A stretch of 64,000 nt of DNA. Source: Candidatus Multivoradales bacterium. Its GTDB lineage: Bacteria; Acidobacteriota; Thermoanaerobaculia; Multivoradales; J023. The DNA lies in assembly GCA_965248925.1 (NCBI GenBank), contig CBDFLE010000006.1:1664001-1728000 (forward strand), given 5' to 3'. Made by a program: the position numbers and the translations under genes. This document shows, one piece after another, positions 14,116 to 14,426 of the stretch. The notes under the pieces were generated by a model that ran no database searches, was not told where the DNA came from, and was given only the letters and a program-made list of their open reading frames with translations. Each line of letters opens with the position of its first letter. Position 1 is the first letter of the stretch.

Positions 14116-14145
14116 TTGACAGCCGCCCGGAGCAAGTATAAAACT
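14116..14145 (+). promoter_or_regulatory. Sigma-70-type promoter of the met leader/operon
   Basis: Perfect TTGACA followed 15-17 bp later by TATAAAACT. The predicted start site falls close to the leader ATG at 14154. Confidence 0.6.
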
Positions 14146-14153
14146 CTCCCACC

Positions 14154-14327
14154 ATGGTCGCCGACCCCACATCTTCACCCCTGAGTTCCGCCTACCCTGC
14201 GGCAGCCGCTGCGCCGTGCCACCGCGGCCAGCCAGAGAAGCAGATGTGGATGGGTATGTGCAGCTGCGCTTGTATGCGCAGGCAAGATGCCGGACGGTGG
14301 ACTCCTGAGGAGTCGGGCAAGAGTTAA
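14154..14327 (+). CDS. Putative Met/Cys-rich attenuator leader peptide (57 aa)
   Basis: MVADPTSSPLSSAYPAAAAAPCHRGQPEKQMWMGMCSCACMRRQDAGRWTPEESGKS*; 4 Met + 3 Cys in codons 31-41 (14244-14276); below the ORF-track size cutoff. Confidence 0.75.
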   Translation: MVADPTSSPLSSAYPAAAAAPCHRGQPEKQMWMGMCSCACMRRQDAGRWTPEESGKS

Positions 14328-14350
14328 ATCGCAACTCAGCTCGCAACCAG

Positions 14351-14386
14351 AAAACCCGTCACGGCACCAGCCGCGGCGGGTTTTTT
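14351..14386 (+). terminator. Intrinsic terminator (attenuator) upstream of metY
   Basis: AAAACCCGTCACGGC-acca-GCCGCGGCGGG-TTTTTT. The 5' arm can alternatively pair with GCCGGACGG at 14289-14297. Confidence 0.8.
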
Positions 14387-14426
14387 GCATTTAGAAGACC
14401 TCTTACGCAGCCACCAGGAGAACCCG

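Follow-up and report, generated by a model that had tools for sequence, protein, structure and literature searches.

A predicted leaderless Met/Cys leader-peptide attenuator upstream of metY in Thermoanaerobaculia

Described leaders of sulfur amino acid genes

The met genes of bacteria are usually controlled by SAM riboswitches, Met T-boxes or the regulators MetJ and MetR, and SAM-I riboswitches and T-boxes also work through a terminator and an antiterminator. Classical leader-peptide attenuators are those of E. coli, trpL, hisL and thrL, and Met codons are said to have been noted in the thr leaders of Pasteurellales by Vitreschak and co-workers in 2004. The leader analysed here precedes metY in a stretch of 64,000 nucleotides of a Candidatus Multivoradales bacterium, hereafter the window. 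It shares with the classical attenuators a short ORF rich in cognate codons, a competing antiterminator, a terminator with a U-tract, a protector hairpin and a biosynthetic operon downstream, but differs from them in being Met/Cys-specific, long (57 codons) and, by prediction, leaderless. SAM riboswitches, T-boxes and MetJ have the same target genes, but the leader has no match to any of them.

The nearest leaders in print are metL, a cysS uORF and the mycobacterial polyCys leaders, so that it was fair of the first-pass annotation of this DNA to call a dual sulfur amino acid attenuator rarely described. In Streptomyces lividans, the metL ORF before metNIQ is leaderless, has 29 aa and closes with a Met/Cys run; it was named a methionine-dependent leader peptide, its start site comes from RNA-seq, its authors saw no intrinsic terminator and put the weight on Met and Thr, not Cys, and the accessible part of the article gives no functional test of it (Droste et al. 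2021, PMC8079986). As described there, metL precedes a methionine importer, whereas the window leader precedes metY and has a terminator. In Rhodobacterales, uORFC-8-2 before cysS combines conserved Cys codons with an intrinsic terminator, and the accessible text proposes ribosome-mediated attenuation as a prediction (Brewer et al. 2021, PMC8632094). That uORF, as far as this text goes, has Cys only and controls a tRNA synthetase, unlike the window leader with Met and Cys before metY. The words methionine and homoserine are absent from the main text of the same article, whose motif lists could contain such leaders.

Mycobacterial polyCys leaderless sORFs precede sulfur-metabolism genes; according to the accessible part of the report, stalling on them relieves repression, as was experimentally tested, by unmasking a downstream Shine-Dalgarno, and they have no intrinsic terminators (Canestrari et al., 10.1101/834739). 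An earlier article had, in its accessible part, predicted polyCys leaders, also lacking terminators, and found no conserved element upstream of the methionine operons of Actinobacteria (PMC1262725). By its spacing the window leader may, like the mycobacterial ones, have a leaderless start; its cluster, however, mixes Met and Cys codons, and it has a terminator. The accessible parts of PMC2965389 and PMC4833913 name no Met attenuator, and the leader-gene tables of the latter could contain one. In the literature searched, with subscription journals largely outside it, no description or tested example of a Met/Cys transcription attenuator before metY was found. The mechanism class is old; the Met/Cys specificity and the leaderless start are little described.

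Organization of the metY leader and its operon

The features of the leader and of the operon that follows are listed below by position in the window.

14116-14121, + strand: -35 hexamer TTGACA, read from the sequence, 38 nt 5′ of the leader ATG
14139-14144, + strand: probable -10 sequence TAAAAC after a 17-nt spacer, position deduced
14154-14327, + strand: predicted leader ORF of 57 codons, leaderless or nearly so, from the ORF list and the frame control in relatives
14244-14276, + strand: sensing cluster MWMGMCSCACM, 4 Met and 3 Cys codons in 11
14253-14291, + strand: predicted protector (anti-antiterminator) hairpin, fold of -19.7 kcal/mol
14289-14299, + strand: antiterminator strand, core GCCGGACGG at 14289-14297, partner at 14356-14365
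14300-14314 and 14315-14342, + strand: two hairpins within the antiterminator helix, read from the sequence, the second containing the stop codon (14325-14327)
14351-14386, + strand: intrinsic terminator, two stacked helices (14355-14380) and a U6 tract (14381-14386)
14416-14420, + strand: Shine-Dalgarno AGGAG of metY, read from the sequence
14427-15746, + strand: metY, O-acetylhomoserine aminocarboxypropyltransferase/cysteine synthase family (TIGR01326, 691.5 bits, cut-off 495.1)
15734-16795, + strand: metX, homoserine O-acetyltransferase (NF001209, 367.9 bits, cut-off 331)
16806-18206, + strand: aspartate kinase (TIGR00657, 222 bits, cut-off 208.7)

The first-pass annotation had proposed, from the letters alone, a TTGACA promoter, a nearly leaderless 57-codon ORF with the run MWMGMCSCACM, and a strong intrinsic terminator, and each of them was found at its place. 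TAAAAC ends 9 nt before the leader ATG at 14154; TATAAA at 14137-14142 is an alternative -10 sequence, and in relatives T and A are enriched at the positions matching the -10 of the window. This spacing places the AUG on the expected start site or a few bases from it, so that a leaderless mRNA is probable. A start inside the ORF, at 14244, was considered as well; the resulting ORF would have 27 aa and be preceded by a weak AGAGAAG, but in relatives it is the promoter-proximal ATG that stays in frame. The 5′ part of the leader ORF also has hairpins, which are no more than candidate RNA polymerase pause sites.

A simple consensus scan of the window called no promoter and no terminator at the leader, where the -10 reads TAAAAC and the terminator stem has an internal A-C mismatch; the scan was judged too strict, because folding and covariation back the terminator. 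The region 13900-14700 is carried without differences by four contig runs of one sample, which are not independent as they are possibly the source of this DNA, and among the runs listed no RNA sequencing run carries the leader.

The sensing cluster ends at leader codon 41. Met/Cys clusters alone are common, with 153 in the genome when all six frames are read, two of them having a terminator of -12 or better (tested only if the stop codon is at most 40 codons away). Genome-wide, 27 of 1964 short ORFs located 34-43 nt after TTGAC have a terminator of -12 or better; within this group the leader ORF stands apart with 6 Met/Cys in 10 codons, none of the other 26 exceeding 3. The fold of 14244-14390 has a z of -3.87, and none of 200 shuffles was as stable.

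The terminator core (14355-14380) has a folding energy of -18.4 kcal/mol and is followed by six U. Its motif has a single occurrence in the genome, by which a repeat family was ruled out. The antiterminator core and the terminator 5′ arm, CCGTC-A-CGGC, were both located and are complementary as had been claimed; their duplex reaches -15.9 kcal/mol (z = -2.28 versus shuffled segments, p = 0.025), and the strand contributes -15 kcal/mol to the fold of 14286-14369. The distance given earlier, 13 nt past the last Met codon, agrees with a strand that starts at the 13th base with 12 bases between. The two small hairpins said to be enclosed by this helix are present too, and their conservation is not evident in the alignment of relatives. 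In the predicted protector hairpin, the sensing codons are paired with the antiterminator strand over its first 3 bases. When the alternative structures were folded, antiterminator and terminator were obtained as mutually exclusive. The Shine-Dalgarno of metY is paired weakly with 14400-14404 in a local hairpin that does not depend on the terminator, and in a fold of 14340-14440, which has the cluster outside it, pairs only locally.

The genes downstream are metY, metX and aspartokinase as annotated before, all three above their family cut-offs. The start of the aspartate kinase was set at ATG 16806, in a frame open from 16755. This kinase is without a homoserine dehydrogenase part, and the operon of a relative (L220) has an 805-aa bifunctional kinase/homoserine dehydrogenase enzyme together with asd. 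The metY family is annotated as bifunctional. The window genome also has cysK over its cut-off, a CBS-like gene under its cut-off, and metH. Divergent from the leader, at 11712-14024 on the - strand, is a 770-aa acyl-CoA dehydrogenase/oxidase-like gene, all of whose matches are far below cut-off and whose extra N-terminal residues, about 200, fall outside any NCBIfam model. A small PIN/VapC-like ORF with a weak match below cut-off lies 3′ of the operon (18472-18840).

Conservation within Thermoanaerobaculia and occurrence in other lineages

Sequence and comparison of relatives established the anatomy of the leader, its conservation, frame and spacing, and the antiterminator pairing. A metY over the family cut-off is present in 93 of 301 genomes of the class, and 81 metY loci were examined (L001-L020, the 21 non-duplicate loci of L111-L140, and L141-L180); L021-L030, metY paralogues 33-51% identical whose best cluster was 4 in 12, were left out. 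A Met/Cys-rich ORF followed by a terminator stands directly 5′ of metY in 65 of the 81. These 65 leaders are a hand-curated set, with negatives listed by hand and the frame set by hand for 9 loci, and the genomes compared are kin and not independent. Two Thermoanaerobaculia MAGs with metY 78-79% identical (L036, L051) have the same leader design, and some cyanobacterial metY are equally close in identity to that of the window.

Among the 16 loci without a leader directly before metY, L113 and L159 have no leader, L156 has no upstream DNA, and L171 and L174 are distant extra metY copies in a genome whose closest copy has one. Ten loci of one genus with divergent metY of 48-55% (L017-L020, L175-L180) gave no leader; this genus of the order has 31 metY-bearing genomes, mostly with two divergent copies each, and the ten loci come from the 8 inspected. 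In a 66th genome, that of L007, metY itself is inside a sulfate-reduction operon, cysH-sat/cysC-cysG-sir-metY-metX, and the leader heads the operon with the cluster CMCACTCAC and the family terminator (L218:8454 onward). By sequence, the leader element stays with the pathway, as in this sulfate-assimilation and metY-metX operon with its Cys-heavy cluster.

The promoter and the reading frame are conserved as well. A TTGAC-type hexamer lies 36-42 nt 5′ of the leader start in 64 of the 65, at 38 nt in 30 of them. Because this count had selected for frame, a control was run with any TTGAC up to 300 nt upstream of the cluster; ATGs 34-43 nt after it numbered 63 in the cluster frame versus 1 and 1 in the others, with 4 loci having no such ATG. 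Leader lengths in relatives vary from 23 to 78 codons. The cluster codons of the 65 leaders, before two clusters were corrected, comprise 212 ATG, 99 TGC and 46 TGT. The conserved frame, the free length and the use of both Cys codons therefore indicate codon counting. Dual sensing, as the first-pass annotation inferred it, would apply to most relatives: their clusters have both Met and Cys, but 9 of 65 are Met-only (7 before L162 and L172 were corrected) and one is Cys-only. Met-only clusters were tested against a separate cysteine route through cysE, which has matches in 57 of the 65 genomes, none over cut-off.

The position of the antiterminator and the terminator are likewise kept across relatives. 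The best partner of the terminator 5′ arm lies 3-20 nt past the last Met/Cys codon, where the duplex peaks at -11.6 kcal/mol versus roughly -5.5 to -7 kcal/mol elsewhere (n=65); the median position of its first paired base is +12, and in 57 of 65 leaders this partner begins before the stop codon has ended. In 36 leaders of family A, 91.4% of terminator cells are paired and 23 cells have two-sided changes, a covariation that none of 500 shuffles matched and that the kin genomes inflate. For the antiterminator, a GCGGG core was aligned by MAFFT unaided, and each of the five pairs of GCGGG/CCCGC holds in 34-36 of the 36 family-A leaders. As this core is nearly invariant, antiterminator covariation is thin, with 12 two-sided cells in flanking pairs only and 16 of 500 shuffles as high. 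The window is mis-registered in the alignment; when it is aligned by eye, CCGTC in the arm faces GACGG in the strand, so that C-to-U in the arm is matched by G-to-A in the strand, one compensatory event. Cognate strand-arm pairs were modestly better than non-cognate ones in family A (-15.4 vs -13.7), and this advantage was absent in family B (-13.0 vs -13.4). Of 60 cognate duplexes, 16 beat shuffles at p <= 0.05, that of the window among them.

Two variants of the leader were observed. In a four-arm variant (L111, L114, L117, L120, L121) the leader stops at or just past the cluster, and an extra hairpin is found between the ORF and a more distant terminator. In 12 of the 65 (L124, L128, L131, L134, L135, L142, L151, L155, L160, L162, L163, L172) the stretch between terminator and metY contains a second ORF, 38-52 codons long and with a Shine-Dalgarno of its own; it carries a Met-X-Met run (often MRMRM) near its beginning, extends across the metY start in a different frame and is absent from the window. 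By its sequence this Met-rich ORF is possibly a translational Met sensor.

Outside the class, 80 named metY loci among the matches listed, not a random sample, were taken, and 76 were tested after two loci of Thermoanaerobaculia and two without upstream DNA were dropped. A short ORF before metY with at least 5 Met/Cys in 12 codons was found in 23 of the 76, versus none of 76 on the opposite strand, and 13 of those 23 have a terminator of -8 or better. The carriers include Bacteroidota, Ignavibacteria, Balneolaceae, Gammaproteobacteria, Eisenbacteria and Acidimicrobiia.

Sister leaders were seen in the same genome. A leaderless 56-codon ORF, in which one stretch of 10 codons has 9 for Ile, Leu or Val, precedes, with a terminator of -24 kcal/mol, ilvD-ilvC-ilvB (L181; G000:C4:11507, - strand); it looks like an ordinary branched-chain attenuator and is a candidate for one. 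A leaderless 36-codon ORF with 6 Pro codons and a terminator is followed by proB-proA (L183/L187; G000:C6:1491941, + strand). Of 21 proB loci of the class, two (L188, L189) have a comparable ORF, with 4-5 Pro, and a terminator; L205 has an ORF with 2 Pro together with a terminator, and L190 has a terminator. The proB-proA leader is thus a candidate proline attenuator, whose Pro specificity is unproven because Pro is common in GC-rich frames. A 20-codon ORF after TTGAC with an inverted repeat occurs twice (G000:C6:1058503, - strand, L185; G000:C5:1750374, - strand), at L185 before a 458-aa ORF that is transposase-like by eye, and is probably an insertion element end.

Attenuation model and alternative explanations

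The leader has a 5′ short ORF, codons for the end products, an intrinsic terminator and an exclusive antiterminator helix, which are among the criteria of class I. We consider it very probable, on sequence and comparison, that it is a class I ribosome-stalling transcription attenuator sensing Met-tRNA and usually Cys-tRNA; the first-pass annotation had recognised trp/thr/his attenuator geometry here, and the computational tests support that reading of the predicted regulation. In the course that we infer, from the start site through translation and stalling to the direction of regulation and the dominant tRNA, the transcript would begin with the AUG at 14154 or a few bases 5′ of it, and a ribosome would load without a Shine-Dalgarno and follow RNA polymerase along the leader, translating it. 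A shortage of charged elongator Met-tRNA or Cys-tRNA would stall the ribosome within 14244-14276, where it would block the protector hairpin, so that 14289-14299 would be free for the terminator 5′ arm as the arm emerges; this pairing would leave both terminator halves blocked, and metY-metX-aspartokinase would be transcribed. With both tRNAs charged, the ribosome would cross the strand, the terminator would form and transcription would stop at about 14386.

At 14380 the terminator state is at -37.6 and the antiterminator state at -32.7 kcal/mol. Since the terminator is about 5 kcal/mol more stable once its 3′ arm is free, antitermination must be kinetic; in this folding model read-through must rest on the antiterminator forming first. 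The effect of the ribosome was modelled by masking the transcript around the first base of the A-site codon, 18 nt on its 5′ side and 11 nt on its 3′ side, and folding it up to the terminator loop, in 59 leaders (the 5 four-arm leaders and 1 without a promoter left out). When RNA 5′ of the ribosome was excluded, mean sequestration of the arm was 0.74 in the cluster versus 0.31 at the stop codon, and the cluster exceeded the stop by >0.1 in 53 of 59 leaders; in the window sequestration stayed at 0.87 as far as codon 42 and then fell, to 0.66 and 0.11 at codons 43 and 44. When pairing across the ribosome was allowed, the means were 0.65 vs 0.56, with 25 of 59 leaders, and in the window the contrast was gone (0.75 vs 0.84, and 0.86 without a ribosome). 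In this model the switch therefore largely vanishes if RNA may re-pair around the ribosome.

The original proposal was that a stalled ribosome would leave the strand free and that run-through to the stop would disrupt it. Both agree with the model that excludes RNA 5′ of the ribosome, and weakly with the permissive one. The strand ends about 26 nt 5′ of the stop codon, and therefore a ribosome parked at the stop leaves it uncovered, so that disruption would occur in transit and be kept by sterics or the protector. For ilvB1 of M. tuberculosis, another classical attenuator, the accessible part of one article has a uORF model in which a ribosome at the stop masks the antiterminator (PMC13236596). 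The window antiterminator differs from that model in lying inside the ORF.

Three other explanations were weighed. Cys-rich peptides can bind metals or sense redox, and most clusters share a CMC or MCM core; both would suit a ribosome arrest due to the nascent peptide and SAM, homocysteine, sulfide, thiol redox or a metal bound by the cysteines, as in arrest-peptide systems, instead of uncharged tRNA, with the RNA switch unchanged. We regard such arrest as improbable, because the peptide varies freely in length (23-78 aa) and flanks, the clusters range from Met-only to six consecutive Cys (1 of 65), and the cluster spacers may be V, S, R, A, I, G or W; codon counting fits these better.

It is quite improbable, a shade more so than peptide arrest, that the leader couples metY to general translation speed, or is mostly a constitutive terminator giving low basal expression, with codon identity secondary. 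The full-length terminator is indeed thermodynamically favoured and the permissive folding model gives a weak switch, but the enriched codons are specifically those of the pathway products, an Ile/Leu/Val run takes their place before the ilv operon of this genome, and the distance from cluster to antiterminator is fixed.

The least probable, and in our view scarcely tenable, is a riboswitch of a kind not yet described or an RNA-binding protein, with the ORF incidental and the ATG-TGC hexamer repeats serving RNA structure, for the unusual conservation of terminator sequence within families and the self-complementarity of TGCATG-type repeats, which would suit it, are opposed by the frame control and the TGC/TGT interchange, both marks of coding constraint, and by the lack of an Rfam match and of a conserved aptamer-sized region between cluster and terminator in the alignment. 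Rfam gave no match in the window at the gathering score and, for the leader at E <= 10, only five unrelated sRNA models of 12-16 bits. No covariance model of a SAM/SAH riboswitch or T-box matched the leader, and a SAM riboswitch or T-box as its identity was ruled out by these scans. In the 96.9%-complete genome, T-box and MetJ had no match, and no SAM-I was found among the 150 of 749 candidates scored.

For the ribosome-stalling attenuator, Met is an awkward signal, because its starvation should also cut fMet-tRNA initiation and an untranslated leader would terminate. Beyond the window, we lean with some reserve towards a wider view, in which leaderless Met/Cys attenuators would be the class-wide default of met control and recur in several phyla, replacing SAM riboswitches by a readout of both sulfur amino acids at the ribosome; the balance of Met and Cys may be adjusted to each operon, some lineages would add the second, translational Met-rich ORF, and the same design would serve ilv and pro. 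If this is true, the separation of initiator from elongator Met-tRNA charging would be directly testable, a compact Met/Cys sensor would be available for reporters, and the control of met operons would be accounted for in lineages without a known regulator.
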